Positions 1 through 44,519 of a stretch of DNA of 64,000 nucleotides are shown one piece after another (positions within the stretch are counted from its first letter, which is position 1; each line of letters starts with the position of its first letter). The stretch comes from an uncultured Acidobacteriota bacterium (GTDB taxonomy: Bacteria > Acidobacteriota > JAAYUB01). Location: NCBI GenBank assembly GCA_964436005.1, contig CAYTBK010000005.1, positions 3,041 to 67,040 of the forward strand, written 5' to 3'. Below the pieces are notes generated by a model. The model was not told the DNA's origin and searched no databases. It saw nothing but the letters and a program-made list of their open reading frames with translations. Made by a program: the position numbers and the translations under genes.

Positions 1-1
1 G

Positions 2-226
2 ATGGGGAAACTGCCCAAAACACTCCCCGGCCTCTTCTTGAAGGCGCTTGCGATGGCCGGGCTGGCTCTGGTGAGGTCCGGGGCCGCCGAAAAACTCTTG
101 CGCAGTGCGGTCAGACGCATGGGGACGACTACCCCAGGCAATCCACAAGGCCGGAAGCCACGGGTTGGCGGCACCTTCTCTCAGGAGGTCAAAGCCTGGT
201 GGCGTTCGCGCCGCCAAGCCCCCTGA
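2..226 (+). CDS. 3' end of a CDS truncated by window start; hypothetical
   Basis: ORF open to window edge, stop at 224-226; no recognisable motif. Confidence 0.3.
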   Translation: MGKLPKTLPGLFLKALAMAGLALVRSGAAEKLLRSAVRRMGTTTPGNPQGRKPRVGGTFSQEVKAWWRSRRQAP

Positions 227-254
227 TTTCCCTCGCACTCACGGAGAGTGATCC

Positions 255-581
255 ATGTCGAAAAGCAATTGGTTGGAAAGGTTGTTCCGTCCAGACCAGC
301 CGGTGGCAAAGGGAGCGAATTTTGGGCTGCTGTCTTGGTTGGGCGGAAAAATCTGCCAGGACGCCAAGCTGAAGCAGCTGGTCTTGCAGACCGAGCTGGT
401 GAAAGCCGAAACGGCCCTGCTCAACAGCATGGGCGATAACATGAAAGCCCGCCTGCGCCTTCACCTTCTCTGCGACCCGTCGTTCCAGGAATCGCTGGCG
501 AAGAAGCTGGCGGCCGAGGAAGTTGGCGTAGACCTGCTGGAAGAATTACTCAAACCGGAGGATTCCGATGAAGCCGTCTGA
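255..581 (+). CDS. hypothetical protein (first of three coupled genes)
   Basis: ATG start 12 nt after preceding stop; overlaps next ORF by 14 nt. Confidence 0.5.
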   Translation: MSKSNWLERLFRPDQPVAKGANFGLLSWLGGKICQDAKLKQLVLQTELVKAETALLNSMGDNMKARLRLHLLCDPSFQESLAKKLAAEEVGVDLLEELLKPEDSDEAV

Positions 582-1050
582 TGAAACACCTTATCGCGGT
601 CCCGGCATCGGCGAGTTCGGCCGGCGCCTGGTGGACTGCTGGCTGGATCGTAAGCGCAAACAAGCGGAGGTCCGCCGCTTTCTCGAAAAGGACTTCGTCT
701 TTTTTGTGAAGGGCCGCTCAGAATATCAGGACGCCTACCGTCACGTCATCGCCCAGCTCAAAGAGCCGGAACCCGCATTTCATGACCGAGGCCGTTTCGT
801 GGAAGTCATGCTGCGCCGCTGGCTCGAGATCGTGCTGTTCCACGGGGTGAAGGAAGAACAAGCGGACTACGCCGCTCCGGCCGAGTCGCCGGATTATGCG
901 CTCCTGTACGACCAGTTCAAAGCGGGCGGCTTTCCGGAAGACGTGGCCATCACCGTGCAGTTTCTGATGGAGCAGTCCGGCGACTCTTCGTTGGCCGGTT
1001 TTACCGAGGCCTACCGGACGGCTTGCCGGGAGGTGGACCATGAGCGCTGA
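568..1050 (+). CDS. hypothetical protein (second coupled gene)
   Basis: Overlaps the upstream ORF by 14 nt and the downstream ATPase gene by 11 nt, indicating translational coupling. Confidence 0.55.
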   Translation: MKPSDETPYRGPGIGEFGRRLVDCWLDRKRKQAEVRRFLEKDFVFFVKGRSEYQDAYRHVIAQLKEPEPAFHDRGRFVEVMLRRWLEIVLFHGVKEEQADYAAPAESPDYALLYDQFKAGGFPEDVAITVQFLMEQSGDSSLAGFTEAYRTACREVDHER

Positions 1051-3028
1051 ACAATCGCCGCGCCTCCTGGATGCCTTCCGGACATTGCACCCGCAATTCT
1101 ACGCCGGCCGCTTGCCGGATGCGTCCCGCCGGGACGACCGGTTCTTCATCGGGAACCTGGATGGCCGGCCCAATGAGCGAGCCTTTTTAGACCCGCAGGC
1201 CTTCGGCGTCCACACCTTCGTGCTGGGGGTGTCAGGGAGCGGCAAAACGCGTTACATCAGCTATTTGTTGTTTGATCTCATTCGGCGCGGGCAGAAGATC
1301 GTCCTGTTGGATCCTGTCGGCGGGCTGTTCGCCGCCGTGCGCAACTTTGTGGGTTTCCTGTACCGGGTCTTCCGGGATTCTCCCTGGTTCCGCCGGTACT
1401 ATCTTGACGAGTTTCAAGAGCGGTTTTACTTCGTCGACTTTTCGGATCCCGGCAATCCATTCCGCTGGAACCCGCTGGAACGGATGGGGGAAGAAAGCAT
1501 CGACGAGACAGCCGGCGACCTGTTGACGGCCATCGAGGACAAGATCGGCAGCATGCTGGACATGCGCCGCCTGCTCAACGTGCTGAACGGCTTGTTCCGG
1601 ATCGGCATCGAGCTGGGGCTTACCTTGCCCGAAGTCCGGGACATGCTGCAAAACACCGAGTTCCGGGAAGCCTGCCTTCGCCGGGCGGCCCCGTCGGACG
1701 CGAAGCGCTATTTCGAGGACTTTCTGCTCCACTTCAAGGGCCAGGAGCTCAACAGCCGCCTGGAGTCGGCCGTCAATGCACTGAACATGCTGCTGAACGA
1801 GCCCTGCATACGCAATTTCTGCTCCGCCCCGAACGGCAATCTCGACTTGGCGAAAATCGTCAACGACCCGGGGAAAAGCCTGGTCGTCCATTTGCCAGTG
1901 GCTGCGTCCCACCATGGGGCGGAACTCATGGGGACACTCCTGCAGACGAAGGTCCTGCGCATCGCCTTCCGCCGAACGCCCGAGCAGCGAAAGCGGCGGC
2001 TTCACCTGGTGACGGACGAAAGCCACCTTTTCGTCAGCGACTACATCTCCAAGGCCTACAGCATCGTCAGGAACTACGGCGTCAGCATGGTGTATTCGGG
2101 TCAGTTCGCGCGGCAAATCCCCCTCAACACGCCCGAAGGGGAAGGCAAGATCAACAACATCATCTCCAACTGCAAGCTCCGCATCCTATTCCGCCTGGAC
2201 CGCGCCGACGCCGAATCGTTTGCCAAGCGGGTGCAACTGGTGGATTTCCGCCGGCTGAAAATGGTGGTGGAAGACGTAGCCGTTTCCCGCACCCAGACGC
2301 GATCCGAAGGGACGTCCCGCTCCCGCGGGGAAAGCCGGGGCGAAACCAGCACGCAAACCTGGTCGGTGACCATGACGGAAGGAACTTCGCAATCTCATGG
2401 CGGAACGAACAGCCGGGGGGAAAGCTCGAGCGTGGGGACGTCGGACGGGAAAACCTTCGGCATCGGGCTGTTGGCGGATGAGGACCGTCCCTCCAGCCGC
2501 CAAGCCGTTTCCACGTTGGGGTCCGGGTTGACCATAACCACCGGCAGCTCCTACGCCGCCGGCGCATCGCAATCCCGCGGGGAATCTTCCGGCGGAAGCC
2601 GGGGCGAGACCTTCACCGTCACCCAGACCGACGGGAAAACCGTCACGGTGGGCAACAGCGACGGTCGAACCGTTACCGCCCGCAACGTGTTCTGGACTTT
2701 GGAAGAGCAACGGGAAGAGTTCATCCAGAAACATTTCCTGTTTTCCCCGACCCGCCTGGCCCTCTTCGCCCTTTCCGACGGTCTGGCCTTGCGAGTGGAA
2801 ACCCCGTTCGTGCCGGACCGTTTCCCCGTCGTGACGCCGGACGGGAAAACCGACTACGAAGCGGCGTACCTGGAGCAATCCTGCCGCCGGGCCGGCCTGC
2901 TGCGGGTGGAGCCGGCCCCGGAAGCGCCGGGAGCCCCGGAAGTCAAGGGGATGGCGGTTGCGGCCGAGGACCAGTCGGCAGAAGCCGGGGCGTCGGGGAC
3001 CAGGAAACGCAAGCGGACGAATCTTTGA
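1040..3028 (+). CDS. VirD4/TraD-like type IV coupling protein family ATPase (no N-terminal TM), C-terminal S/T/G/R-rich repeat tail
   Basis: Walker A GVSGSGKT followed by the T4CP-typical IVLLDPVGG motif; Walker B-like HLVTDESH; C-terminal degenerate SRGES..SRGET repeats encoded by an internal DNA duplication (~2320-2390 vs ~2570-2640). Confidence 0.6.
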   Translation: MSAEQSPRLLDAFRTLHPQFYAGRLPDASRRDDRFFIGNLDGRPNERAFLDPQAFGVHTFVLGVSGSGKTRYISYLLFDLIRRGQKIVLLDPVGGLFAAVRNFVGFLYRVFRDSPWFRRYYLDEFQERFYFVDFSDPGNPFRWNPLERMGEESIDETAGDLLTAIEDKIGSMLDMRRLLNVLNGLFRIGIELGLTLPEVRDMLQNTEFREACLRRAAPSDAKRYFEDFLLHFKGQELNSRLESAVNALNMLLNEPCIRNFCSAPNGNLDLAKIVNDPGKSLVVHLPVAASHHGAELMGTLLQTKVLRIAFRRTPEQRKRRLHLVTDESHLFVSDYISKAYSIVRNYGVSMVYSGQFARQIPLNTPEGEGKINNIISNCKLRILFRLDRADAESFAKRVQLVDFRRLKMVVEDVAVSRTQTRSEGTSRSRGESRGETSTQTWSVTMTEGTSQSHGGTNSRGESSSVGTSDGKTFGIGLLADEDRPSSRQAVSTLGSGLTITTGSSYAAGASQSRGESSGGSRGETFTVTQTDGKTVTVGNSDGRTVTARNVFWTLEEQREEFIQKHFLFSPTRLALFALSDGLALRVETPFVPDRFPVVTPDGKTDYEAAYLEQSCRRAGLLRVEPAPEAPGAPEVKGMAVAAEDQSAEAGASGTRKRKRTNL

Positions 3029-3048
3029 CGGGGAGCGTTAAGGAAGAA

Positions 3049-3223
3049 ATCATCCGGGCGGGCGAAATGTCCGTCGGGGATGGCCGCAAATGGCGTCCAG
3101 CATCCCCGACTACGTCGTCTCTTCCCCTGGCCGAGCCGACGTAGTCGGGGCTTGGCCCGACGGACATTTCGCCCGGATTTAGATGATCCGTCGCCCTATA
3201 CGTTGACGGATAGGGCGACGGAT
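3049..3223. promoter_or_regulatory. nested inverted-repeat cluster upstream of the replication-relaxation gene (candidate oriT/operator)
   Basis: Outer IR 3052-3078/3156-3178 (23 bp with 3-nt bulge); inner IR 3104-3117/3137-3150 (14 bp); IR gtcggggatg 3073-3082/catccccgac 3101-3110; separate 14-bp hairpin 3186-3199/3210-3223. Confidence 0.5.
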
Positions 3224-3245
3224 AAGGCTGGGGACAGGGTGCCGA

Positions 3246-4235
3246 ATGCAAAACGAAACCGACTCTGAGGAAACGACCATGGAAGAACAAAGCACGGATG
3301 CCGGCCGCGACAGCGCCCCCGTCCACCTCACGCCGAGGGACATCCACTTGTTTCAACTGCTGCGCTGCTATCGGTTCCTGACCAACGACCTGGTCCGCAA
3401 GCTGGTCTTCTTCACCCGAGACGCTTCGGGCCGGAGGATCTACACCAGCCCCAGGAACGTCCGCAGGCGGCTGCATATGCTGCTGGAGCAGAACTATCTG
3501 CGCGCCTTCCGCGCCCCGGTGAAAACCGGCGAAGAAGCTTTCGTCCATCACTACTGGCTGGGCCCCAAGGCGGTCCCCATCCTGGCGGAGGCCGCCGGGG
3601 TGAGCGATGTCGCGACTCTCTGCCGCCGGGAGGCCGGGAACAAAATATTTCTCCTTCATACCATGCTGACGGAAAGCGTCATGGCTTCCTTCGAGCTAGG
3701 TCTGGACGGCTGCGGCGTGTTGCGGCAGCTGCCGATCGGCCTTGCCGGCGGCCTGCCCTGGGTGAACGAATGGGCCTACCAGGACCCTTCGGCGGTGAAA
3801 AAGGAAGACCGCTACCTTTCCTATGACCGGGTCTATGACCATCAGTCCAAATTGACGTTGACCGTTTACCCGGACAGCGTGACCGTGCTGGCGGGGGTCA
3901 ACGAACTGGCGGGCCTGCGGCGCGTCGTCTTCATCGAGGCGGACCGGGCCACCGTGCCGCACAAGCGCATGGTGGAGAAGCTGGCCGCCTATGCCGCCTA
4001 CCAGGATCAGCATAGGTACCGCAAATATGCTCCGGAGGCCGATGGGATGAAGGTTCTCCTGGTGTTCAGTTCCGCTCGCCGGTTGCAATCCGTGCAATTG
4101 ACGCTGTCGCGCCTGTCACGCATCCAGGAACTGGCGTTGTTGGGCTATGCCGGGGATGTGTGCGACCCCAAGAAAATCCTGACGGACAAGATTTGGACGA
4201 CGCCGCGAGGGGAGAAACTCTCCTTGCTCACCTGA
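3246..4235 (+). CDS. replication-relaxation family (Replic_Relax, wHTH) protein
   Basis: N-terminal wHTH-like motif HLTPRDIHLFQLLRCYRFLTNDLVRKLVFF...RRRLHMLLEQNYLRAFR typical of the PF13814 family. Confidence 0.65.
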   Translation: MQNETDSEETTMEEQSTDAGRDSAPVHLTPRDIHLFQLLRCYRFLTNDLVRKLVFFTRDASGRRIYTSPRNVRRRLHMLLEQNYLRAFRAPVKTGEEAFVHHYWLGPKAVPILAEAAGVSDVATLCRREAGNKIFLLHTMLTESVMASFELGLDGCGVLRQLPIGLAGGLPWVNEWAYQDPSAVKKEDRYLSYDRVYDHQSKLTLTVYPDSVTVLAGVNELAGLRRVVFIEADRATVPHKRMVEKLAAYAAYQDQHRYRKYAPEADGMKVLLVFSSARRLQSVQLTLSRLSRIQELALLGYAGDVCDPKKILTDKIWTTPRGEKLSLLT

Positions 4236-4447
4236 AGCTGAAGAGGAGCCGTTTCATCCGGCCTCACCAAGTTGCATTTCAGTTCATTCCATTTCATAAT
4301 ATTTTTTAGGGCAACTAGCTTATTATTCTTGATTTTAACTGCTATTTGACGATAATGAAATTAGGTTGATTGAAAGCCCCTTTTAGTCATCCTTTTTAGT
4401 TTTTCTCCCCTGAGTATGACGCCAGAAGTCCTGCTCCTGCTGGGAGG
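4236..4447. other. AT-rich island in a high-GC background (candidate origin/att/promoter region)
   Basis: ~210 bp with a strong GC drop and short catttca/cattcca/tttcata iterated motifs. Confidence 0.4.
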
Positions 4448-4726
4448 ATGCGCGATGATCGCGGCCGTGAACCTGTCATGTACGTGGTTGTTGCGCGGCT
4501 CCCGAGGGAAGAAACGATCCGGGAAACCCAGCCCCGGATCCAAAGCCGCTCGCCGTCCGCGAGCCCTTTGAAGACGCCGGATTTCGGGCCTACGCCTGGA
4601 ACCCGCTCCTTCTCCCTGCCGGGAGGGTCTCCCCAGACCCTCCCTTTCCTCCTCGTTTTCCGGCTTTCCCTGATCTTTGACAATCCGGTCTTCCCGCTCC
4701 GATTTTACTTGTTAACCTTGCTGCCT

Positions 4727-5152
4727 ATGCTGTGCTATCTCGACTCCAAGCTCCAGGACGATCCCGACATTGAGGACGTCACGGTGGAACCCCTCAAATG
4801 CTCCTGCTCCTATTGCGGCGCGGAACTGCAAGACGACGACTGCGCTTCGTGGAAAGAGACGCCCGACGCGGAAGGCGTTTGCCCCGAATGCGGCCATCTA
4901 TCCAGTTATTGCTGGAATGACCTTGACGGCCGCGCAGACTGGTTCAATTGGGCGAACATCTCCACCGACCGTCACGGTTGTCTTTACTTCAACGTGAGCG
5001 TCGCCGATCCCCGCGGCTCGGATCTCACCTTCATCCTCTACGTGGACCGCAACGATCAGGCGTACAAGGTGGTTCTGCCCGACGGCGGCCTGTCCTACCT
5101 CAAACCCAAGGACGAGCTGAAGGAGCGCGTGCTCGCCTACGTCTACAGTTGA
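4727..5152 (+). CDS. hypothetical zinc-ribbon protein
   Basis: CSCSYCG...CPECGH motif pair; no SD before 4727, so the start is uncertain (the ORF opens at 4448). Confidence 0.4.
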   Translation: MLCYLDSKLQDDPDIEDVTVEPLKCSCSYCGAELQDDDCASWKETPDAEGVCPECGHLSSYCWNDLDGRADWFNWANISTDRHGCLYFNVSVADPRGSDLTFILYVDRNDQAYKVVLPDGGLSYLKPKDELKERVLAYVYS

Positions 5153-5174
5153 TCTATTCTTTAACCCTCTCCCT

Positions 5175-5492
5175 ATGGAAAAATCGGACCCAACGCCGGA
5201 AAAAGAGCGGCTGCGCTACTTCGTGCTCCTGTTCGAGCTGAAGTTCCCCTCCGCCCGGCCCGGACTGACGGAAGACCGGATCGTCCTGGAAAAGCTGGTG
5301 CTGGCCGTCGACGAATCCGCCGCCGGATTCATCGGCAAACGCTGGGAAGCCGCCCAGGCCAAACGCAGCGACTGGGGCGCGGTCAAGTTCCTGGCCGTCA
5401 AGAAGGCCACCCAGCAAGCCAACGCCAACCTCGACCATCTGCGCAAGCTGGCCGTGGAAGCGGAAAAGGATGTGAAAAGCGCAGGGGCCTAG
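5175..5492 (+). CDS. hypothetical protein
   Basis: Plausible composition; no SD. Confidence 0.4.
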   Translation: MEKSDPTPEKERLRYFVLLFELKFPSARPGLTEDRIVLEKLVLAVDESAAGFIGKRWEAAQAKRSDWGAVKFLAVKKATQQANANLDHLRKLAVEAEKDVKSAGA

Positions 5493-5733
5493 CCTCGCCG
5501 GCAGCTCTGGAACCAGGGCTGCCGGTCCCTCTGCCGATTGTCGTCGTGAACTGCGACGTTTCCCTTTTTCGGCTCCTGGGCTGTGAAAGGATACCGTTTC
5601 CCGGCATGAAGAAGGCCGCAGACTTCGGCCGTCTCCGCCGGACCAGAAACCGGCCGTCACCACGGCCGCAGCCGGCCAGGCTGGATCAGCCCTCCGGAAC
5701 GGGCGCAACCCATTTCACAGGAGGAAACGAATC

Positions 5734-5949
5734 ATGGCCGAGAAAAAAGTGCTGATGAACTCGTCCGAAGCGGCCCAGTATCTGGGCGTGGCCCGGAGAA
5801 CGCTCTACAATTTAGTTTACTTCCGGAAAGTCCCCTTCACCAAGGCGTTCGGGAAACTCCAATTCGACCTCGAATTGCTCAACAGCTTCCTGATGGAGCG
5901 CACTTTCATGCCCCCGAAACCCAAGCCGCGGCCTGGGCAGAGCCTATGA
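5734..5949 (+). CDS. excisionase/AlpA-like HTH (HTH_17) DNA-binding protein
   Basis: SD caggagg 8 nt upstream; motif SSEAAQYLGVARRTLYNLVYFRKVP. Confidence 0.65.
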   Translation: MAEKKVLMNSSEAAQYLGVARRTLYNLVYFRKVPFTKAFGKLQFDLELLNSFLMERTFMPPKPKPRPGQSL

Positions 5950-5961
5950 AGGAGGTGGTCC

Positions 5962-6180
5962 ATGCCTGAAGGGATCAAACTGAAAAAGAGACTGGCGACC
6001 ATCAAGGAATTCTGCCGTGAAAACACCCAATTCCGGGAAGGCGGCATCCGAGCCCTAATCTTTCACTCCGACGACAACGGCTTCCGGAAAGTCCTGGTGC
6101 GCGTCGGCCGGAAAATCCTCCTGGACGTGGACGCCTTCGAGCTGTGGCTGGACCAGGCTAATGGCCGCCCGGGAAAATAA
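5962..6180 (+). CDS. excisionase-family HTH DNA-binding protein (paralogue of the preceding gene)
   Basis: SD gaaggaggtgg; motif IRALIFHSDDNGFRKVLVRVGRKILLDVDAFELWL. Confidence 0.65.
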   Translation: MPEGIKLKKRLATIKEFCRENTQFREGGIRALIFHSDDNGFRKVLVRVGRKILLDVDAFELWLDQANGRPGK

Positions 6181-6189
6181 TCAAGCTCA

Positions 6190-6230
6190 GGAGAGCGGGC
6201 AATCAGACTCGCTCTCCTAATTTCTTCTCC
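6190..6230 (+). terminator. intrinsic terminator after the xis-like genes
   Basis: 8-bp stem ggagagcg/cgctctcc with a 12-nt loop, followed by taatttcttctcc. Confidence 0.5.
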
Positions 6231-6364
6231 CCATGGCCCTCTCTTGTCCGCGCAACGTCTCCCCACATTTTCCCTGAGCTTTTTCCAAACTATTTCTCGA
6301 AGAGCCGAGGATATAGGCTTCCACTCCGAAGCCGAAAAGGCAACTCCCCCAAATTTCCCCCAAG

Positions 6365-6404
6365 GGCCTAAAAACAACAAGGACTTGCTAGTGCAAGTCC
6401 TTGA
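6365..6404 (-). terminator. intrinsic terminator of the tRNA-Val/tRNA-Asp transcript
   Basis: 10-bp perfect stem aaggacttgc/gcaagtcctt; on the minus strand it is followed by ttgttgttttt. Confidence 0.55.
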
Positions 6405-6410
6405 TTTAAA

Positions 6411-6487
6411 TGGCGGGGTCGACGAGACTCGAACTCGCGACCTTCGGCGTGACAGGCCGACGTTCTAACCAACTGAACTACGACCCC
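6411..6487 (-). tRNA. tRNA-Asp (GTC)
   Basis: Cloverleaf: acceptor GGGGTCG/CGACCCC, anticodon loop CTGTCAC, T-loop TTCGAGT, CCA encoded. Confidence 0.9.
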
Positions 6488-6559
6488 GCTCAATTCTGCT
6501 CGACATGATCCGCGGAACCTGGGTTCCGGCGGCGTGGCAAACCATGGAAAGATCGTTTC

Positions 6560-6635
6560 TGGTGGGCGGTACAAGGCTCGAACTTGTGACCCTCGGCTTG
6601 TAAGACCGATGCTCTACCAACTGAGCTAACCGCCC
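6560..6635 (-). tRNA. tRNA-Val (TAC)
   Basis: GGGCGGTTAGCTCAGTTGG...CTTACAA anticodon loop...TTCGAGC T-loop; CCA encoded. Confidence 0.9.
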
Positions 6636-6744
6636 GAGCGAATTGTAACCATAGCCCAGCTCCGATTCGTTGTCAAGAAAAACCTGGGGGAGGTGTGCAA
6701 TTTTTTCGCCGCGGGAGCGCGTGGGCCCGGCCGGAAAAACCGGG

Positions 6745-7248
6745 CTACCGATAGGCGGGCGGCAGCAGCTTTCGCCAGGCGAGGCCGTGCTTTCCCGGGC
6801 CGTAGTAGTCCGGCAACCGACCGGCCGGGCGGAACCCCGTGGCCTGGTAGAGGGCGGTGGCGGCCGGGTCGCCCTGACGGGATTCCAGCCGCAGGCTCCT
6901 GGCCCCGTGGGCACGGGCGCGGTCCTCGGCCAGGCCCATCAGGCGGCGGCCCCACCCCTGTCTCCGGGCCGCGGGGCAGACCGCCACGGAGAGGACGCGG
7001 GCCCAGGGGCTTCCGTGGCGGCTTCCCCCGAAGGCCAGGACGATGGAGCCGAGGGGGGCGCCGGCTCCGCTCTCCACGAGGTAGAGCTCGCAGCCGGGCT
7101 GGGCCAGGAAATGCCGGTACAGTTCCTCGGAATAGGCGTTTTCGGTGAAGCACTCGTTCTCGACGGCCATCAGGGCCGCCAGGTCGCGCTCGGCGGCCGG
7201 CCGGATGGACGCCCCCTGGGCGAAGTCTTCCGTCTCCATGCTTTTCAT
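6745..7248 (-). CDS. GNAT family N-acetyltransferase (RimI-like)
   Basis: GNAT motifs RRQGWGRRLM and ATALYQATGF. Confidence 0.8.
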   Translation of the reverse strand: MKSMETEDFAQGASIRPAAERDLAALMAVENECFTENAYSEELYRHFLAQPGCELYLVESGAGAPLGSIVLAFGGSRHGSPWARVLSVAVCPAARRQGWGRRLMGLAEDRARAHGARSLRLESRQGDPAATALYQATGFRPAGRLPDYYGPGKHGLAWRKLLPPAYR

Positions 7249-9652: not shown

Positions 9653-10009
9653 ATGGGCGAACCGGCCCGGCTGGGCTGGGAAGGCGAGCGACTGGCCTAC
9701 CGGCTGCTCGTGCAGGAAGGGTACGACGTGCTGCTGCGGAACTGGCGGGCCCCTTTCGGGGAAGTGGACCTCATCGCCCGGCGCGACGGCGCGGTGCACT
9801 TCGTGGAAGTGAAGACCCGGCGCCGGAACCCCGACTTCCGGCCGGAGCGGCGCGTGGACGACGACAAGCAGGACCGCCTTCGCCAGCTGGCCCGCTACTT
9901 CCTCAAGATGAACGGCTGGACGGGCCTGGCCTGCCGCTTCCACGTGGTGTCCATCGAGGTGGGGGACGACCGCCGGGCGGAGGTCCGGTTAATCGCCAAC
10001 GCTTTCTGA
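9653..10009 (+). CDS. YraN family (UPF0102) endonuclease
   Basis: GERLAYRLLVQEGYDVLLRNWR...EVDLIAR...VHFVEVKTR; start uncertain (an alternative GTG lies near 9574). Confidence 0.7.
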   Translation: MGEPARLGWEGERLAYRLLVQEGYDVLLRNWRAPFGEVDLIARRDGAVHFVEVKTRRRNPDFRPERRVDDDKQDRLRQLARYFLKMNGWTGLACRFHVVSIEVGDDRRAEVRLIANAF

Positions 10010-13000
10010 GGAAGGGGGCTCCAGGGGGATCTGGAAACGGAACACGCTTCCCCCGTCGGCCCCTTTTTCGGCCCATATCCGGCCGTGATGGTGCTCCACG
10101 ATCTGCCGGCTGATGGAGAGGCCCAGGCCGGTGCCCCTGGGCCGGTCGGTCAGCGAGTCGCCCACCTGGAAGAACTTGTCGAAAATATTGTTGACGTGGT
10201 CGGGGTGGACGCCGATGCCCGTGTCGCGAACCTCGAACAGCACGCCGTCGTCCAGCCGGCCGGCCTGAAGGCGAATCTGCCCCTCCTCGGTGAACTTGAT
10301 GGCGTTGGAGAGCAGGTTCAGGATGACCTGCAGGATCCGGTTCCGGTCGCACACGAGCGGCGGCAGGGCCGGCGCGGTCTCGACGACGATCCGCAGGTTC
10401 TTCTGGGCGGCCAGCGGTTCCATGGTCGCCGCGCTCTGGTCCAGCAGTTCCCGGATGTCCACCTCTTCCCGCTTCCAGTCCACCTTGCCGGCCTCCAGCT
10501 TGGCGATGTCGAGCAGGTCGTTGATGAGGTTGGTCAGCCGTTCCCCCTCGTCGACGATGATCTTCATGTTCTGCAGGACCTGGTCGCGGGTCTTGTCCGG
10601 TCCGCTGTCCGGGGTGGGCAGGACGGCGGCCGACTCCAGCTTCTTCAGGGTGATCCGGGCGAAGCCGACCACCGAGGTGAGGGGCGTGCGCAGTTCGTGG
10701 GAAGCGATGTTGAGGAAGTCCGTCTTCATGGCGTCGATCTCGCGGAGGCGCTCCAGCGAACGCTGCAGCATCTCCCCTTCCAGCTTGCGGTAGTTGGCGG
10801 TCATCCGCATGCGCACCAGGACGAAAACCGCTCCTGCGCCCAGGGTCAGGTAGAGGGCCAGGGCCCACCAGGCCCGCCACCAGGGGGGGGTGATGACGAT
10901 GCGGAGGCGGGCCGGTCGGTTGCACCGGATGCCGTCGTTGTTGGCTCCCTCCACGAGGAAGACGTATTCGCCGGGCGAAAGGTTGCCGTAGGTGGCGTAG
11001 CGCCGGTTCCCCGCCGACACCCAGTCGTTGTCCACCCCTTCCATCCTGTAGCGGTACCGGTTCCGTTCCGGGCACTGGAAGTTCAGGGCGGCGAACTCGA
11101 AGGTGATCACGTTCTCGTCGTGGTTCAGGGTTATGCTGTCGATGTATTCGGGCTGCTGGCCGGCCGCGGTTCCCGGTCGGGCCGTCAGGGGTTCGTTGAG
11201 CACGCGGATGCCCGTGAAGCGGACCGGCGGCCGGAAGGTGTTGGGCCGGATCTTGTCCGGCCAGAAGCAGTTCGTGCCGTGGGTGCCGCCGAAGTAGAGG
11301 CAGCCTGAGCGGCCCCGGCAGTAGGCGCCCTGGTTGAACTCGTCGGACTGGAGCCCGTCGGCCTTGCCGAAATTCCAGAAGGCGCCCGAATCGGGGTTGA
11401 AGCGGGAGAGACCCCCGTTCGTGCTGAGCCACAGGAAGCCCGCGTCGTCGGGGATGATTCCGTGCACGGTGTTGGCGGGCAGGCCGTCTTCGATGCTGTA
11501 CAGCTCCCAGCGGCCGCTTCGCGGATCGAACCGGCTCAACCCCATGTCGCTGCCGACCCAGAGTATCCCGTGGCGGTCGAAGCGGAGGCAGCGGATGCCG
11601 CTGCACGGCGGCCCCTGCTTGCCGGAACGGTCGGCCCGGATCAGCGAGGCCCGGCCGGACGAGGGGTCCAGCCTGGCCAGGCCGCCGCCCAGTCCGCCGA
11701 CCCAGATCGCGCCGTCCTCGGACTGGGTGATGGCCCGCACTACCTCCCGTTCCGGCGATTTGTCCGGCAGCCGGTACTGGTGGACCCGTTCCGTTTCCGG
11801 ATCGAGCCATTTCAGCCCGTTTTCGGTGCCGGCCCACAGCGTCCCGTCCCGGCTGGCGAAAACGGTTCGGCAGGTTTCGTCCAGCCGCGAGGGTTGCCCG
11901 GCGGGAGAGAGGGCGAAGTGGCGAAACCGCCGGGTCGCCGGGTCGAGGCAGTCGAGCCCCCGGCCGTAGGTGGCGCACCAGAGGCGCCCCGACCCGTCCG
12001 TTACGAGGCCCCAGACCCCGTCGACGGACAGGGAGTGGGGGTTTTTCGGGTCGTGCCGGTATTGTTCCACCTCGCCCGTCCGGGGGTCGCAGCAGAAGAT
12101 GCCCTGTGAAAGGGTGCCGATCCATATTTTTCCCTGGGGATCCTCGACGATAAACATCACGAAGGCCTGGCCGAACCGGGAGTCGTCGGCGGGGAAAGCG
12201 CCGAGGTTGCGAAAGGCGTTCTGGCGATCGGAAAGGGTGCAGAGGCCGTTCATGGTGCCGATCCAGATCAGCCCGCTCCGGTCCCGGCAGAGACAGTCGA
12301 TGATGTCGAAGGGCAGGCTGGCGCTGTCCTGCGGGTCGTTGACGGCCCGCCGCAGGCTGCCGTCCCGGCTGTTCCAGAGCAGGAGGCCGCTCCCGCTGGT
12401 GCCGATCAGCAACTGGTCGGCATCCTTCCACAACAGGGCCTGGATTCCCGGCCGCGCCGTTTCGCCCAGCAGCGGTTGCGCCAGCCCGACGAACCGCAGG
12501 CGTACCGGGTCCAGCGTGAACAGCCCCTGCTGCGTTCCGATCCAAAGGAGGCCCTTGCCTTCGCCGAGGTGGAGGATCCCGTTCGGCGTGCCCCGGCCGC
12601 CGGGTGTTCCGGGGGCCGGGAAAAAGCGGCGGACCTTCCCCGTGGACGGGTCCAGCCGGTTCAGGCCGTTCTCCGTGCCGATCCACACGAATCTCCGGGA
12701 GTCCCGGAGGAGAAAGGTGACGCTGCCGTTGCTCAGGTCTGTGCCGGACGGCCCGGCGACGAGCCGGCGAAGGATTTTCCCGTCGCCGGTGACCAGGTAC
12801 AGCCCGACGTTTGTGCCGACCCAGAGGGTGCCGCCGGGCTCCCGCAGCAGGGCGGCTACCCGGGCACGGGGAAGGCCCGCGGAGGCGGGGCCGGCTTTCG
12901 GGAAACGGCGGAAGGTCTGGGTCCGCGGGTCCATGGCGGCCAGGCCGCCTTCCGTGCCGACCCAGAGGGTGCCGTCCTCCCCCTCGCACAGGGCGTTGAT

Positions 13001-13273
13001 CCAGTCGCTGGGCAGCGAATCGGGGGAGCGGGGCTTCATGCGAAAAACCTTGAAGGAATAGCCGTCGAAACGGTTCAGCCCGTCGTAGGTGCCGAACCAC
13101 ATGAACCCCTGGCGGTCCTGCAGGGAGGTGAGGATGGAGTTCTGCGACAGGCCGCTGGGATAGCGGCTGAAATGGACCCCGGCCGACAGCACGCCGTTCG
13201 GGGGCGGGGCTGTCAGGCTCCAGAGGCCCGGCACGAGAGACATCAAGGCTGCCAGGAAGAAGGCCTTTCGCAT
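9989..13273 (-). CDS. sensor histidine kinase with periplasmic two-component-regulator beta-propeller/Y_Y_Y domains
   Basis: Repeated propeller blades (GTxxGLxxxD), TM helix, HisKA motif ASHELRTPL, HATPase motifs DTGIGV and GTGLGLSI; signal/TM at the chosen ATG; the ORF extends to 13399. Confidence 0.8.
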
Positions 13274-13425
13274 GGCGGTATTTTTCCACACCCCGAGGGG
13301 GAAATCAAGACGGCCCGACGGGGTCTTGTTCAGGAAAACGCTTCCCCGGACCGGGCCTTTGGCGGATAATGAATCCGGGACCGCGACCAGGGAAGACACC
13401 GGCGGTGCAGGGCGGAGGCGGACAG

Positions 13426-16756: not shown

Positions 16757-16896
16757 CTCGACCTTCGTCGACGTGTTGGAATATCGGCAATCCGGAGAAA
16801 ATCATGAGTGATGGCCGTCACACCCGGCAAAAACGGCGGAAAACATCCCCACCGGCAGACTGCCACCTGGCCTGACCCGAAGATTGCCGCCGGGCG

Positions 16897-19800
16897 TCAA
16901 AGCGCCTGCCGTCTCTTCTTCCCTTTGCTTTTCGACTTGCTGCCGGTGGCCTTGACTGGCTTTTTCTTGTGGACGCTCTGCTTCTTCTGTTTCGTGCTGG
17001 CCTTGTGGACGTGACGGGAAGGCCTGGGGGAAGGCTTCTGCTTCTTCACGGCCGGCCGGGGGGCGGCCGGCTTGTCCTTCGCCACGGCGGGGGCTGGCCC
17101 GGACGGGGGCTCCGCTGCCGGCGTGGGTTCCACGGCCACCGGCCGGGCCGGGAACAGGGCGCCGTCGCGCATGGCCGTGAGCAGGTCGCGGGCGGCGGGG
17201 GCCGCGGCCCGGCCGCCGTAACCGCTGTTCTCGAGGAGGAAGGCGAAGGCGACCGGGGCCCCGGGCTCGGGCCGGTCTGCCGGAGTGGCCGGCGGGGCAT
17301 CGGCCCCGGCGGACTTCCCCGCCGTCGGCCGCTCCGGCTTCTCCGGACGAATGTATTTCCCCGGGTCGGGCGGCGGGTCGGCGAACCCGATGAACCAGGC
17401 GTGGGATCGGCCGTCCCCCGATGCCGTCTGCGCTGTGCCGGTCTTCCCCCCCGTCACCAGGCCCTCCACCGCCGCCTGCCGACCGGTCCCGGACACGGTG
17501 ACGCTGACCATCCAGCTGCGCAGCTGGCGGGCGGCTTCTTCGGGGAGCAACGTAGCCAGATGGCCGGGTTTCGGCTCTTCCGGGTAGAGGGTGAGCCCCG
17601 GGACGACGCGGCGGCCGTCGTTGCGCACCATGGCCGCCACGGCGGCCATTTCCATGGGGGTCACGGCGACGAGGGCCTGGCCGTAGGCGTTGTCGGGCAG
17701 ATTCACGTCCATGGCGGCGGCGTTTGGAATGGCCGGCAACGTCAGTCCCAATTCTTTCTTGCAGAAGGAGAAGAAGTCGGGGGCGCCGACGCGGGTGCCC
17801 AGCCAGGCGAAGTACACGTTGCACGATTCGATCAGGGCCCTCGGCATGGCGATGCGTCCGTGCGCCGATTCCGTTTCGTCGTCGGTGACGCTGCGTTTGT
17901 GCAGGATTCGGTCGTATGTCCAGGGGATGACGTTCTTGTGCCGGCAGTCGATGGTTTCGGCATTCGGGGACAGGCCTTTCCAGAGGGCCGCGGCGGCCGT
18001 GACCACCTTGAAGGTGGAGCCCGGCGGGTAGATCTCTTTTCGGCACCGGTCGGCGACCGGGCGTTCTCCCGGGCCGTAGATGGACTGGAGCAGGGCCGGC
18101 GTGGGCGGGATGTTCGGGTCGTATCCGGGGAGGCTGAGGCAGGCCAGGATGTCCCCGGTGAGGGCGTTCAGCACGACGGCGGCGCCTGCCGAGCGGCGGA
18201 CCCCGTCGAATTCGGGGAAATTGTTCTGCAGGGCCCGGGCGGCGGCCGCCTGGATGCGGATGTCGAGCGACAGACGCACGTCGCGGTCCTGGCGCAGGAT
18301 GTCCCCCAGCCGGCCGGCGGGGAACAGCGCCCGATCGCGAAACGGCCCGGCCAGGCCGGAATAGTCGGGCTTGACGATGCGCACGCCTCCCACCACCTCC
18401 ACGCGCTCGCTGTACGGATAGCCCCGGAGGTGGGTGTCGAACTTCTTCTCGACGGTGTCCTGGTCCGACCAGTAATCCTGCGTGCACCCCAGCAGGTGCA
18501 CCGTCAGCGGGCCGAAGGGCTGGACGCGCCGCCGCCCGTCGGCGGCGGGGGGGGATCCCCCCAGGGCGCGGACGAGAGGCGCCACTTCCTCCGCCTCGAG
18601 CGGATCGTTGAGCGCCAGCGGAACTCCGCGGCAGTCGCGGATCGCGCCGCGGGGGATGAGAGCAGCCAGTGTCGTCAGGCGACGGTTGCAGGCGTAGCGG
18701 CGCACGCCGTCCCCCTGGGGGACGAGGCACGGTTTGACCAGGATGGCGTCGGCGGAGGGCCCCATGATGACCCACGCCTTCCCCGCCGCCAGGATCAGGG
18801 CGGCGGCGATGACGGCCGGCACGACCAGGGCGGCGGCCGGCAGCCTGACCGGACGCGGTTCGCCGGGCGGGCGCCGGGAGGCGATGTTGATCATGAGGCC
18901 GATCAGGATGAACGTGGCGATGGTGGCGGATTTCCCATAGCCCAGCAGGGGGAAGGGGATCCCGGTCAGGGGAAGGATCCCCAGCGAGGCCGCCGAGATC
19001 ACCGCGGCCTGGACGCCGAAGAGGAGGGCGAGCCCGAAACCCAGCCCGGACGCGTAGGCGTGCCGCGCCTGGTAGGCGTGGTAGATCATCATGACGAAGA
19101 TCGCGGTGCTCCCGGCGAGCAGGAGAGCGACGGCCGGGAAGCCGAAGACCTCGCCGCAGGAGGCCAGGATCAGGTCGGTATGGCCGGCGGGGATGTAGTT
19201 GGGTGACGACAGGCCGGGGCCGCTGCCCGCTCGTCCTCCCGAGGCGAGGGCCCAGAGCGACTCCGCCAGCTGGACGCCGCCCGGGCGGTGGTTGTCCCAG
19301 GGGGAAAGCCACATCTCGATGCGGGTGGAAACCGTCTGGAACACGGAGTGACGATAGGCCAGCCAGAACGCGGTGGTGAGGACGGCCAGCCCGGCCAGGC
19401 CCAGCATGAGCCGCCTGGCGATGGAGGCGAAGAGGCAGACGAACACCAGGTACAGGACCATGGCGGGGCCCAGGTCCTTTTGCACGAAAAAGAAGGCCAG
19501 CGACGTGCACATGAAGATCGCCACCGGCAGGACGTCCCGGATCCTGGGAATGGAAAATGGGCCCAGGCGGAAGGCGTTCAGCGCCTTCAGTTCGTTCTCC
19601 CGGTCGCTCAGGTAGGCGGCCAGGAAAAGGACCACCATGAGCTTGATGAATTCCACGGGCTGGAAACCGAACAGGTTGATGCGGGTGTCGGTCCCCTCGG
19701 GGCCGGAACCGTACAGGATGAGCAGGAGCGACAGGCCGAGAGCGGACAGAATGGTGATGTATTTGAAATCTTCCAGCGTGGACAGCCTGATGAAGCCCGC

Positions 19801-20556
19801 GGCTGCCACCAGCCCCACCATGGCCACCGCTACGCCTTCGGCAAAGGCGAACGCCAGCATGTTGTCGCGCAGCGGGTCCTGGAACTGGTAGAGGACAATG
19901 GCCGTAAAAGACGAGAAGAGCAGGACGGCGGGCAGGTAGAATTCGCCGCCCCGTCGTCGGCAGAAGCGCAGGGCCAGGTGCGCTGCGACGAAGAGGGTGG
20001 GGAAAGCCCACAGGTAGATTCGCCAGGTCTCCCGGGCCGTTTCGGCGGAACGAACGACGACGACATTCCGGATCTTCTGCAACTGGTCCGGTGACAGCGG
20101 GCGTACCTGCCCACGGTGGCCGGCTTTGCTTTCCGCCAGCAAGGCACTGAGGGACAGGTGGGTTTTCTCCCACCAGCCGGCTTCGTCCATCCGCCTGGCC
20201 ACGCGGGCCGCCAGCGGCCGGAGATCTTCGGGGGGAAGAAGGGTGGAAAGGGCCTGTTCGATTTCCGTCTCGGTGGCGGTTGACAATAATGTTATTCTGG
20301 GTGGTGCGATCCGCGAGGCAAAGGGTCGCATCCTGATCGGGGAAGAGGAGGCTGCTTCCGCGGGTTTTCCGGAAGACCCCGCCCCCCCTCCCGTTTGAGG
20401 CCCGAAAACACTGATTTTCCAGGGGAGCGGGGCGACGGAAGCGGCGATCCTGGCGTCACCGGAACGCAAACCGAGCTGAAGTATCCAGACACTGGCCAGG
20501 AGAATGAGGGCCAGTTCAATGTTCCGGCAGAGCAACACCACCCGCAATTTCTTCAT
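16897..20556 (-). CDS. SEDS glycosyltransferase (FtsW/RodA family) fused to a class B penicillin-binding protein transpeptidase, with a Lys-rich C-tail
   Basis: SEDS motifs (GFQPVEFIKLMVVLFLAAYL); additional TM helix and pedestal; STFK, SxN, KTGT transpeptidase motifs; single 1219-aa ORF. Confidence 0.85.
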   Translation of the reverse strand: MKKLRVVLLCRNIELALILLASVWILQLGLRSGDARIAASVAPLPWKISVFGPQTGGGAGSSGKPAEAASSSPIRMRPFASRIAPPRITLLSTATETEIEQALSTLLPPEDLRPLAARVARRMDEAGWWEKTHLSLSALLAESKAGHRGQVRPLSPDQLQKIRNVVVVRSAETARETWRIYLWAFPTLFVAAHLALRFCRRRGGEFYLPAVLLFSSFTAIVLYQFQDPLRDNMLAFAFAEGVAVAMVGLVAAAGFIRLSTLEDFKYITILSALGLSLLLILYGSGPEGTDTRINLFGFQPVEFIKLMVVLFLAAYLSDRENELKALNAFRLGPFSIPRIRDVLPVAIFMCTSLAFFFVQKDLGPAMVLYLVFVCLFASIARRLMLGLAGLAVLTTAFWLAYRHSVFQTVSTRIEMWLSPWDNHRPGGVQLAESLWALASGGRAGSGPGLSSPNYIPAGHTDLILASCGEVFGFPAVALLLAGSTAIFVMMIYHAYQARHAYASGLGFGLALLFGVQAAVISAASLGILPLTGIPFPLLGYGKSATIATFILIGLMINIASRRPPGEPRPVRLPAAALVVPAVIAAALILAAGKAWVIMGPSADAILVKPCLVPQGDGVRRYACNRRLTTLAALIPRGAIRDCRGVPLALNDPLEAEEVAPLVRALGGSPPAADGRRRVQPFGPLTVHLLGCTQDYWSDQDTVEKKFDTHLRGYPYSERVEVVGGVRIVKPDYSGLAGPFRDRALFPAGRLGDILRQDRDVRLSLDIRIQAAAARALQNNFPEFDGVRRSAGAAVVLNALTGDILACLSLPGYDPNIPPTPALLQSIYGPGERPVADRCRKEIYPPGSTFKVVTAAAALWKGLSPNAETIDCRHKNVIPWTYDRILHKRSVTDDETESAHGRIAMPRALIESCNVYFAWLGTRVGAPDFFSFCKKELGLTLPAIPNAAAMDVNLPDNAYGQALVAVTPMEMAAVAAMVRNDGRRVVPGLTLYPEEPKPGHLATLLPEEAARQLRSWMVSVTVSGTGRQAAVEGLVTGGKTGTAQTASGDGRSHAWFIGFADPPPDPGKYIRPEKPERPTAGKSAGADAPPATPADRPEPGAPVAFAFLLENSGYGGRAAAPAARDLLTAMRDGALFPARPVAVEPTPAAEPPSGPAPAVAKDKPAAPRPAVKKQKPSPRPSRHVHKASTKQKKQSVHKKKPVKATGSKSKSKGKKRRQAL

Positions 20557-20885
20557 CAGTGGCCTCTTCGCCCATAGCGGCTCCGACAGAAAAAAATACG
20601 GGTTCCTTTAGCTTGGGGAGGCGGAACCCGCTTAGGGGGTAGTTAACATTGAAGTCCAAACCTATGCCTGATTCTCATAATTGTCAAGTCAATTTATGGA
20701 AGGGTGTTCCCGTGCGTTGCGCGAACCAACCTCGAATCGGGCGTGGCATATTATCCTGTTCGTTATCATGGCGGTTTTCTGCCGGAGACGCAGCCTGGTA
20801 TTGGGAAGAAAATTGAGTGAAACGGCCGATTTCGGCATCCATAAGTTGTAAGGGATTTGTCTGGCCGGGACCTGAGGGAGGCGGA

Positions 20886-21590
20886 ATGGGCAAGGTGAAA
20901 ACCATTGTATTGATAATAGGAATATTGTCTTGTCTGGGCAGTGCGGCCATGGCCAGGGAGTTGCCCAATTGGGTGGTCCGGGCGGAGTATCCCGTGCCCA
21001 CGGCGGCGGCGGACCGGTGGGCCGTGGTGGACTGGCTGTACCGGGTGACGGAAATCCGGGTGATCGACGGGGAAGAATGGTGGGCTGTCACGGTGGACAG
21101 CGTGCGGGGGAATGCCGTTTCCTCCGGTTCTTTTCTCTTCCAGCCGGAAACGAGGGTGGTCAGGAATGCCTGCTGCCTGACGAAGCGAAACGGTGTGGAC
21201 ATGGAGGTCGATCTGGATAGCATCCAGGGGGAAGGCGTCTCTCTGCACCCGTACAGCCCTTTCCCTCTGGATCAGGCGGTTTCGCCTTCCCTAGCCGCGG
21301 GCCGGTTGGCCGCCCGTTCGTCCGGGGGCAGCGGTTGGTCTTTCCAGGCTGAATTCACGGTCCGCCAGGGGACCGCCGAGGAGTTGTCCTCCTCCCCCCT
21401 GGCCGCGAAGGCCCGCCAGTCGGCGGGGGAAGTGTCGACTTTCGTGGTGGAAGGTCAAAAGGGGAGTATCTTGTCTGGCCGGCGCACCCTTCAATACGGA
21501 AGCCGGTTCCCCTGGTGGATCTGTTGCGAAACTTCGTCTTGCCGGTCGGTAATGGTAGAATTTCAAGGAGTTGTCTTGAAAGATGAATAG
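20886..21590 (+). CDS. hypothetical secreted protein
   Basis: SD gagggagg; signal peptide MGKVKTIVLIIGILSCLGSAAMA; overlaps the next gene by 8 nt. Confidence 0.5.
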   Translation: MGKVKTIVLIIGILSCLGSAAMARELPNWVVRAEYPVPTAAADRWAVVDWLYRVTEIRVIDGEEWWAVTVDSVRGNAVSSGSFLFQPETRVVRNACCLTKRNGVDMEVDLDSIQGEGVSLHPYSPFPLDQAVSPSLAAGRLAARSSGGSGWSFQAEFTVRQGTAEELSSSPLAAKARQSAGEVSTFVVEGQKGSILSGRRTLQYGSRFPWWICCETSSCRSVMVEFQGVVLKDE

Positions 21591-36811: not shown

Positions 36812-37426
36812 TCAGGGGTTCGGGGGCGGTTCGTAGACCAGGCGTTTATGGGAGTCCCAGAGATCCCCCGAGGGATTCATCCGATAAGTGGGGAACAAGG
36901 GATCATCCGGAACGGCCGATATTTCGAAAGACGCTTCGTCCCTTTCTCCATTGCATTTGCAGGAAAAAGTATAGCCATTGATATGGACGTCCGTCGAGGC
37001 GAAGCGGGCATCCAGCAGGCCGGCGGCAGCCAGTTCCCGAAAGCTTCCGTAACGGGCGTTGTCCATGAGGAATGTACCCTGGGCCGACCGGATCGTGGTG
37101 AAGACATCCGTGACGTTGGGAACCGGTTTGACAGTGGGCAGCGCGTATCCCGTCATCGGGGTGCTGTATTCCACGGCTTTTTCCTTCGGGGGAAGCGCCC
37201 CCTGGTCTTCTTTCGCCATATCGCCCGTCCGCACCTTCTCCCCGGTGGCGGTCAGCATCCAGATCAGCAGGAAAAGGAGCAACAAGCCGGCGAATGCCGC
37301 CCCGTAGCGGAATTTCCAGTCTGCCAACCATTCCCGCTTGATCCGGAAAACGCTCTTCCAGGCCTTGTTTCCGAACACACGATCCTCCGGTGTCTGCCAT
37401 CGTTTGCAAATTGCAATTGTAAACAT
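36812..37426 (-). CDS. hypothetical single-pass membrane protein
   Basis: Forms the 3' end of a 2600-aa antisense shadow ORF, but has protein-like composition and one TM helix (AAFAGLLLLFLLIWMLTA); no clear SD. Confidence 0.5.
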   Translation of the reverse strand: MFTIAICKRWQTPEDRVFGNKAWKSVFRIKREWLADWKFRYGAAFAGLLLLFLLIWMLTATGEKVRTGDMAKEDQGALPPKEKAVEYSTPMTGYALPTVKPVPNVTDVFTTIRSAQGTFLMDNARYGSFRELAAAGLLDARFASTDVHINGYTFSCKCNGERDEASFEISAVPDDPLFPTYRMNPSGDLWDSHKRLVYEPPPNP

Positions 37427-37663
37427 CTGCCCTGCCGGAATCAAGTGGGAAGCAAGGTCGGGGCGGGTGCGGCTTTCCAGCGGGGTGCACGCCGTTTCGC
37501 GGCGTTTTCCGGAGGGGGCCCCGGGCGGGCGTTCACCGGGCCAGGCGTGCCCGCGGCCGTTACAACTTTGGCAAGTCCCGGTATTTCGGAAAGTGAAAAA
37601 CGGGCGGTTCGGGGTAAAATCAGAGGAAAACACCGGTATGAATCTGTCCTGGGGAGGTTGCCG

Positions 37664-44506: not shown

Positions 44507-44519
44507 AGGGGGGACCGTG

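Follow-up and report, generated by a model that had tools for sequence, protein, structure and literature searches.

What purpose is served by the densely nested inverted repeats that separate two adjacent genes near the left end of a 64,000-nucleotide stretch of DNA from an uncultured Acidobacteriota bacterium (assembly GCA_964436005.1, contig CAYTBK010000005.1, positions 3,041 to 67,040; the whole stretch is hereafter called the window, and coordinates refer to it)? The repeats lie between a gene encoding a type IV coupling protein (T4CP)-like ATPase and a gene of the Replic_Relax family, and a first-pass annotation made from the sequence alone had offered three options for them: an origin of transfer (oriT) with its nic site, a replication origin, or an autoregulatory operator. 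Our analysis favours the first of these, allows the operator to coexist with it at the second of two hairpin structures, and provided no specific support for a replication origin. The region 3049-3228 is probably the oriT of an integrated mobilizable or conjugative element with a MOBC relaxase, a reading based on comparative sequence analysis to which we assign a probability of roughly 0.7.

This reading is favoured because the repeats are flanked by T4CP and PF13814/MOBC relaxase genes, because the gap between the T4CP and relaxase genes of the enterococcal plasmid pTEF1 has the same layout, because distant T4CP-MOBC modules also carry nested repeats, and because one family of such repeats, here termed R1, covaries as DNA and picks out the repeat of the window. 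The features of the locus are as follows.

1040-3028, + strand: T4CP-like ATPase gene, 662 amino acids (Pfam TrwB_AAD_bind, DUF87/HerA and T4SS-DNA_transf)
3052-3078: left arm of the outer inverted repeat, core 3059-3078 = CGGGCGAAATGTCCGTCGGG, with the terminal junction motif GTCGGGG (repeat search, folds)
3069-3075 (- strand), 3159-3165 (+ strand) and 3186-3192 (- strand): related GACGGAY copies (motif counts)
~3081-3099: small hairpin in the 25-nt spacer from the outer left arm to the inner hairpin (minimum-energy and centroid folds)
3104-3150: inner hairpin with an 11-nt loop, CCCCGAC at its start and GTCGGGG at its end (aligns to the R1 inner stem)
3156-3178: right arm of the outer inverted repeat, CCCGACGGACATTTCGCCCGGAT, starting 5 nt past the inner hairpin (repeat search, folds)
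3186-3223: second hairpin, arms 3186-3203 / 3206-3223 pairing at 17/18 positions, 2-nt loop, no T-run after it (repeat search, folds)
3205-3228, + strand: tandem 12-bp direct repeat (sequence, motif counts)
3279-4235, + strand: MOBC-family relaxase gene (Replic_Relax, predicted PD-(D/E)XK-like), with an alternative start at ATG 3246

Layout and folding of the repeat cluster

The outer repeat, annotated in the first pass as 23 bp long, was recovered by a repeat search in the same place, as a perfect core of 20/20 pairs (3059-3078 against 3156-3175) prolonged by three more pairs (3052-3054 / 3176-3178) over a 4-nt bulge (3055-3058); it is because of this bulge that its two arms had been given as 27 and 23 nt. 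The inner repeat described as 14 bp long is likewise perfect (14/14, 3104-3117 / 3137-3150) and can be enlarged to 17/18 over 3104-3121 / 3133-3150, the 14-bp hairpin noticed further downstream pairs at 14/14 (3186-3199 / 3210-3223), and the heads said to be repeated are indeed found, atcatccg at 3049-3056 and atgatccg at 3183-3190.

Two of the earlier descriptions had to be qualified. The 10-bp repeat gtcggggatg/catccccgac, listed among the nested repeats, is perfect in sequence (3073-3082 / 3101-3110), but it uses bases of both the outer and the inner stems and thus represents an alternative to them; the overlap rules it out as an additional stem formed at the same time. It also competes with the small hairpin at ~3081-3099, which takes its place in the minimum-energy fold. 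Similarly, the length of 217 bp quoted for the gap holds only if the relaxase starts at ATG 3246, whereas the distance is 250 bp from ATG 3279. The latter start is better supported, being preceded at 7 nt by the ribosome-binding site GAGGA and agreeing with the 318-amino-acid gene model of NCBI.

Folding of 3040-3230 on both strands, the check proposed for what had been called a cruciform-capable architecture, found the region highly structured as single-stranded DNA (-71.6 kcal/mol, z = -11.4 for the + strand; -73.6 kcal/mol, z = -12.5 for the - strand), and none of the shuffles folded as well (0/200). In the predicted shape, a small and a long hairpin meet a long outer stem, which closes the three-way junction, and another hairpin stands apart downstream. 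The outer, inner and second repeats ranked as the top three separated-arm inverted repeats in a scan of the 64-kb window, elsewhere in which no further copies of the arms were found with up to 2-3 mismatches allowed.

Absent from the earlier list is the tandem 12-mer GACGGATAGGGC / GACGGATAAGGC at 3205-3228, which sits 70-120 bp away from positions inside the nested repeat. The motif GACGGAY occurs five times in 3069-3223, and four of the nine matches of the octamer GACGGAYA in the window fall inside 3068-3224. By analogy with the 12-bp-phased repeats of plasmid pTEF1 and with the binding site of TraX, the relaxase of plasmid pAD1, the repeats at 3205-3228 are a candidate binding site for the predicted winged helix-turn-helix (wHTH) domain of the relaxase.

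The relaxase and the nested repeats of other T4CP-MOBC modules

The gene downstream of the cluster matches PF13814 with 55.2 bits (E = 1.3e-14, cutoff 25.3). PF13814 is the MOBC relaxase family, characterised by a PD-(D/E)XK fold as in restriction endonucleases, and its prototypes, TraX of pAD1 and MobC of CloDF13, are relaxases and not Rep proteins. Across 30 aligned homologues, residues H138, D210, E231 and D233 do not vary, and K245 is almost invariant. The best Foldseek matches of the AlphaFold model (predicted local distance difference test score, pLDDT, 90.7; predicted template modelling score, pTM, 0.88) were weak (E = 0.02-0.1) and comprised PaqCI, MunI, the nickase N.BspD6I, BstEII and PadR-type wHTH proteins; these matches of a predicted model fit the published restriction-endonuclease-like fold and are no proof of it. 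Aligned with hhalign, the relaxase family and the TraX-type protein of pTEF1, itself a match to PF13814 with 28.5 bits, corresponded in the N-terminal wHTH and the H motif only (probability 80%). A word-index protein search with the relaxase returned only the query itself, a scan of genome contigs with it yielded no relative, and tblastn against 72,556 plasmids gave no match.

Plasmid pTEF1 of Enterococcus faecalis V583, a pAD1-type pheromone plasmid typed as MOBC, carries a T4CP gene (19757-21970) and a replication-relaxation gene (18114-18899) separated by a 700-bp gap. Within this gap, a perfect outer repeat (18/18, 19498-19515 / 19622-19639; total span 142 bp) encloses a perfect inner repeat (25/25, 19528-19552 / 19580-19604), and five 12-bp-phased direct repeats adjoin the nested repeat. 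In pAD1, the only well-studied MOBC system of enterococci, the oriT occupies the corresponding gap; this site, oriT2, has counterparts in pTEF1 and pAM373 and is a substrate of the MOBC relaxase TraX, with the TraG-like TraW. This oriT2 reportedly consists of an inverted repeat of about 140 bp that contains nic, the short direct repeats beside it giving specificity. According to a 2025 review, the binding site of TraX, a protein with an N-terminal wHTH, is formed by five direct repeats located 70-120 bp from nic.

Nested repeats also accompany modules that are only distantly related to that of the window. The order of T4CP gene and then relaxase gene is kept in these relatives, and a large nested inverted repeat was found beside the module in every one of those examined that was sufficiently flanked (loci L005, L007, L008, L010 and L092), lying upstream of the T4CP gene in L008 and L010 and directly downstream of the relaxase gene in L005 and L007. 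L092, which belongs to the clade nearest the relaxase of the window, has a 170-nt nested repeat in the polarity of the window's + strand; its spacers measure 22 nt on the 5' side and 5 nt on the 3' side, and GTCAGGG/CCCTGAC stands at the corresponding helix ends. Short direct repeats were also observed at about 150 nt from the large inverted repeat in L005 (9313-9369, three copies of AATTTATAGG spaced 23-24 bp) and in L007 (9227-9249, two copies of AAGTTATAGGT spaced 12 bp), the 12-bp phasing in L007 being the same as in pTEF1 and at 3205-3228 of the window.

A scan with relaxases related to those of L008 and L010 gave 80 loci, mostly from Verrucomicrobiota metagenome-assembled genomes (MAGs). 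The covariance model R1 was made after nhmmer, with the window excluded from its building. An R1 element of about 170 nt is present in 37 of the 80 loci, mostly in Verrucomicrobiota but also in some Acidobacteriota and in some MAGs labelled Akkermansia, always as one copy per locus (examples are L008 6105-6276, L010 3506-3683, L037 3192-3363, L062 1287-1460 and L073 1935-2105). It is located 200-450 nt upstream of a Walker-A T4CP-like gene, with the relaxase gene following, and in 36 loci it is on the strand of the genes; its stems (outer CCCCAACGTGTCG.., inner CCCGACTTCGCGCTTTTT..) are accompanied by the loop motif CGGCTATCGGG. At L036 (7923-8093, - strand) the element is inverted and lies downstream of the relaxase gene, so an R1 element can switch both position and polarity relative to the module.

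Cells of the R1 alignment that should pair did so at 96.2%, against 36-47% when the partners were slid by 1-3 columns, the former value being inflated by an alignment fitted to the structure. Both sides had changed in 20 of the 32 pairs, and the covariation score reached 0.383 compared with 0.03-0.09 in the slid controls, values that no shuffle attained. Compensatory changes were visible also in an unfitted MAFFT alignment (TTCGCGC/GCGCGAA vs TGGCGTG/CACGCCA vs AATTCTC/GAGAATT). The R1 family clearly bears out, for an analogous repeat, the compensatory change that the first-pass annotation had asked for in relatives. G-T cells amounted to only about 0.6%, and this near-absence argues for a constraint acting on duplex DNA and not on RNA. 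Short tandem direct repeats were looked for beside the R1-family elements and none were found; no published description of this repeat family was found either.

When window positions 1-7000 were searched with R1, run without filters and with a rough calibration of E-values, the best match was 3049-3189 on the - strand, at full length (21.8 bits, E ~8.5e-4). The second match was the inner hairpin alone, and unrelated matches did not exceed 8 bits, while the repeats of pTEF1 and L005, taken as controls for generic nested pairing, scored 8.5 and 11 bits, respectively. The excess of the window's score stems from sequence that the helix ends have in common (...CGTCGG-(3-5 nt)-CCCGACT...AGTCGG...CCGAC...), and GTCGGG/CCCGAC marks four corresponding helix ends in each of the window repeat, L008, L010 and the R1 consensus.

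The window repeat resembles R1 in having an outer stem around a long inner hairpin and a small hairpin, with GTCGG(G)/CCCGAC at four helix ends, and in its association with a T4CP gene that is followed by a PF13814 relaxase gene. It differs from R1 in lacking the loop motif CGGCTATCGGG and the inner loop of about 50 nt, its own inner loop measuring 11 nt, and in its placement, since it lies downstream of the T4CP gene and in the opposite orientation to the genes, whereas R1 lies upstream and on the same strand; moreover, the T4CP of the window has 662 amino acids compared with about 430-480 in the R1 modules. On this sequence comparison, the window repeat is not counted as a family member; the resemblance is taken to reflect either distant kinship or convergence on a recognition motif.

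Proposed transfer origin and rival explanations

Under the oriT reading, the genes for the T4CP (1040-3028) and for the MOBC relaxase (3279-4235) would together form a DNA-processing module. The predicted N-terminal winged-helix domain of the relaxase would bind the GACGGAYA repeats, which are phased and lie within or close to the second hairpin (3186-3228), and its restriction-endonuclease-like domain would nick one strand within the 127-bp nested repeat (3052-3178), 70-120 bp away; the proposed distance from binding site to nic is that reported for TraX of pAD1. The nested repeat may extrude as a branched cruciform or form a three-way junction in the transferred single strand, and either form would gather the four copies of GTCGGG(G)/CCC(C)GAC at helix junctions, where the branched repeat could serve recognition, termination and religation, or both. 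The T4CP would pass the nicked strand to a type IV secretion channel, the element's own or that of a helper. The GACGGAYA repeats and the second hairpin would likely double as an autoregulatory operator and, since this site is about 55 nt upstream of the relaxase start codon, binding of the relaxosome probably represses transcription of the relaxase gene.

A more specific proposal is that the nested repeat constitutes a branched DNA substrate, whose four half-sites are read by a dimeric MOBC relaxase acting as a structure-specific nickase. We consider this rather unlikely, and mention it for its consequences: if true, the architecture would be conserved from enterococcal pAD1 to Verrucomicrobiota, and a structure-specific nickase would explain how MOBC transfer can start and finish without a detectable covalent protein-DNA intermediate.

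Several observations weigh against the assignment of the cluster as an oriT. No relative of the relaxase with more than 32% identity was found among 1.84 billion cluster representatives in an exhaustive HMMER search, and the Logan contigs that cover the repeat region are identical to the window and thus uninformative on variation of the arms. Only two tandem copies of the 12-mer are present, compared with five in pTEF1, and neither type IV secretion genes nor an integrase were seen in the available part of the element. The R1 match of the window is weak, at 21.8 bits against 90-163 bits in members of the family, and part of it reflects generic nested pairing. T-runs follow the repeats of the distant modules L005 and L007, which could thus be terminators. 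Subfamilies also differ in the polarity of the repeat and in its position, which may be 5' of the T4CP gene, in the gap that separates the genes or 3' of the relaxase gene.

The alternative that survives best, though we judge it improbable, is a purely regulatory DNA or RNA element with no role in transfer, consisting of autorepressor operators or of a structure that occludes a promoter or stabilises or attenuates the T4CP-relaxase transcript. The relaxase gene has the cluster in its 5' region, with a weak promoter-like site directed into the repeats:

3025-3053, + strand: weak sigma-70-like promoter match (TTGACG, 17 nt, AATCAT; 9/12, consensus scan only)

This match overlaps the stop codon of the T4CP gene and is not evidence of function. 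The second hairpin is a 38-bp palindrome, almost perfect and situated about 55 nt before the start codon, and has the form of a typical dimeric repressor site, but the 127-bp branched palindrome much exceeds known operators in size, and the same architecture in pTEF1/pAD1 is an oriT. Moreover, the repeat in the 37 R1 loci accompanies the T4CP gene and is 1.6-4.8 kb from the relaxase gene, so it is no relaxase operator there. An RNA structure would suit the folding of the repeat region as RNA (-114 kcal/mol, z = -9.9) and the probable co-transcription of the T4CP and relaxase genes, deduced from their overlap in several relatives; yet the stems of the R1 family covary with hardly any of the G-T/G-U pairs to be expected in an RNA element, and no Rfam family matched the cluster (with Rfam 15, only the two tRNAs described below passed the gathering score in the window, the best score in 2900-3400 being 20 bits, far below the cutoffs). 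An intrinsic terminator was rejected as a candidate, as none was called at either structure and the stems are followed by GGATTTAGATG and AAGGCTGGGG, without a T-run. Finally, regulation and oriT function often coexist, and the regulatory explanation competes with the oriT reading only where oriT function is excluded.

A rolling-circle or single-strand replication origin, used for maintenance of the excised element rather than for its transfer, is very unlikely. It would account for the Pfam family name 'replication-relaxation' and for the large hairpins, which are typical in single-strand origins, but the characterised PF13814/MOBC members, TraX and CloDF13 MobC, act as relaxases, and the gene to which the site is tied encodes a T4CP, a protein without a part in vegetative replication. 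Rolling-circle replication starting at oriT can be driven by the relaxases of integrative elements (PMC5714925), but this would be an added use of the same site and not a separate identity.

The idea of a selfish palindromic insertion, like a miniature inverted-repeat transposable element (MITE) or a repetitive extragenic palindromic (REP) element, or of a recombination or resolution site, present in the gap by chance, is highly improbable. In its favour, the unit is compact like a MITE (127 bp, bounded by terminal inverted repeats of 23 bp), there is no gap here in those relatives whose T4CP and relaxase genes overlap, so that the DNA could be an insertion, and TraX also mediates site-specific recombination between oriTs (PMC5714925). 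Against it, no second copy of the arms was found in the 64 kb and no target-site duplication flanks the ends, R1 and the shared junction motif tie the window repeat to repeats syntenic with T4CP-MOBC modules, and the related loci each hold a single copy in fixed relation to the module.

The surrounding element and comparison with known systems

The module stands at the edge of an integrated element, the left part of which is beyond the window. The GC content of the first ~6 kb is below that of the DNA after it, and ordinary chromosome (e.g. ClpA) lies to the right of a tRNA-Asp/tRNA-Val pair. The remaining features at this end of the element are as follows.

5734-5949, + strand: HTH_17 (excisionase/AlpA-like) gene, near the element end (Pfam HTH_17, 31.4 bits)
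6411-6487, - strand: tRNA-Asp gene, flanking the low-GC segment (ARAGORN and Rfam)
6560-6635: tRNA-Val gene (ARAGORN and Rfam)

The element probably integrated in the vicinity of tRNA-Asp; the window was searched for a repeat of the 3' end of this tRNA gene that could represent an att site, and none turned up. A hairpin at 6380-6410 (aaggacttgc-tagt-gcaagtcctt) abuts the 3' end of tRNA-Asp; on the - strand a T-rich stretch comes after it. This hairpin is probably the terminator of that tRNA gene, and any boundary of the element would therefore be to the left of it. A Logan contig extends the sequence leftwards by 1.27 kb, containing small unannotatable open reading frames (ORFs). Contig L001 (SRR10083294) corresponds exactly to window 86-6439 and ends within tRNA-Asp, while its positions 1-30 show no relation to window 56-85; the alternative join falls within ORF 2-226 and may be strain variation, a recombination point or an assembly branch.

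Weak TraD- and VirD4-like NCBIfam matches were obtained with the T4CP-like protein. It carries an insert (window 2294-2662, residues ~419-541) of low complexity, rich in Ser, Thr, Gly and Arg (...SRTQTRSEGTSRSRGESRGETSTQTW...), which gives a weak match to a 'serine-rich protein' model and is unusual in coupling proteins. Two further genes of the element encode proteins without family assignment, one of 234 amino acids with a weak zinc-ribbon match (4448-5152) and one of 72 amino acids beside the HTH_17 gene (5962-6180); both are candidates for accessory or excision functions. ORFs 3080-3268 (+ strand) and 2943-3659 (- strand), which cross the palindromes, were rejected as genes, being typical artefacts of high GC content. 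Long ORFs of up to 2,600 amino acids overlap on opposite strands elsewhere in the window (36812-44614 on the - strand against 36848-44506 on the + strand; also 9903-13399 and 16802-20556), which is the usual effect of 65-70% GC, with one real ORF per pair at most.

An oriT beside a MOBC relaxase is a feature of a known kind, here in a lineage without a described example; taken alone, the window would present an expected feature of a known module type. Nevertheless, transfer origins are the least catalogued part of conjugative systems, and for the non-HUH MOBC relaxases few oriTs have been defined (pAD1, pAM373, CloDF13 and some predicted recently in plasmids). A credible oriT marks the tRNA-adjacent island as potentially transmissible and defines a 180-bp fragment. 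Of more general use is the R1 family, which is widespread, covaries, and shares its branched geometry with pAD1: if its repeats are oriTs, they could aid the annotation of mobile elements in the phyla that carry them, and the recurring branched geometry offers a handle on the mechanism of MOBC relaxases.

As regards known systems, a preprint on plasmid oriTs reports that MOBC genes usually come after the T4CP gene, with the oriT about 2 kb upstream, and that one such oriT was validated, using a T4CP-MOBC operon. Unlike this generic layout, in which the oriT precedes the T4CP gene about 2 kb 5' of the relaxase gene, the repeat of the window lies between the two genes. The window has in common with CloDF13 (MobC) both the relaxase family and the tight linkage of oriT (a probable one in the window), T4CP gene and relaxase gene.

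The closest parallel in layout is offered by pTEF1 and pAD1, although the repeat cluster of the window belongs to an integrated element in a high-GC chromosome and not to a Firmicute plasmid. The repeat sequences of the window and pTEF1 are without similarity, as judged from R1 scores and inspection, and the window adds a small hairpin that turns the predicted fold into a three-way junction. Its tandem repeats number two, are supplemented by inverted and diverged copies within a hairpin, and are on the relaxase side, whereas those of pTEF1 are on the T4CP side. In both cases, however, the cluster is located in the gap between the T4CP and Replic_Relax/MOBC genes, inverted repeats are nested one inside the other (20(23)-bp outer and 14(18)-bp inner repeats spanning 117-127 bp in the window, compared with the 142 bp of pTEF1), and the nested repeat is adjoined by short direct repeats with a period of 12 bp, two tandem copies in the window and five in pTEF1.

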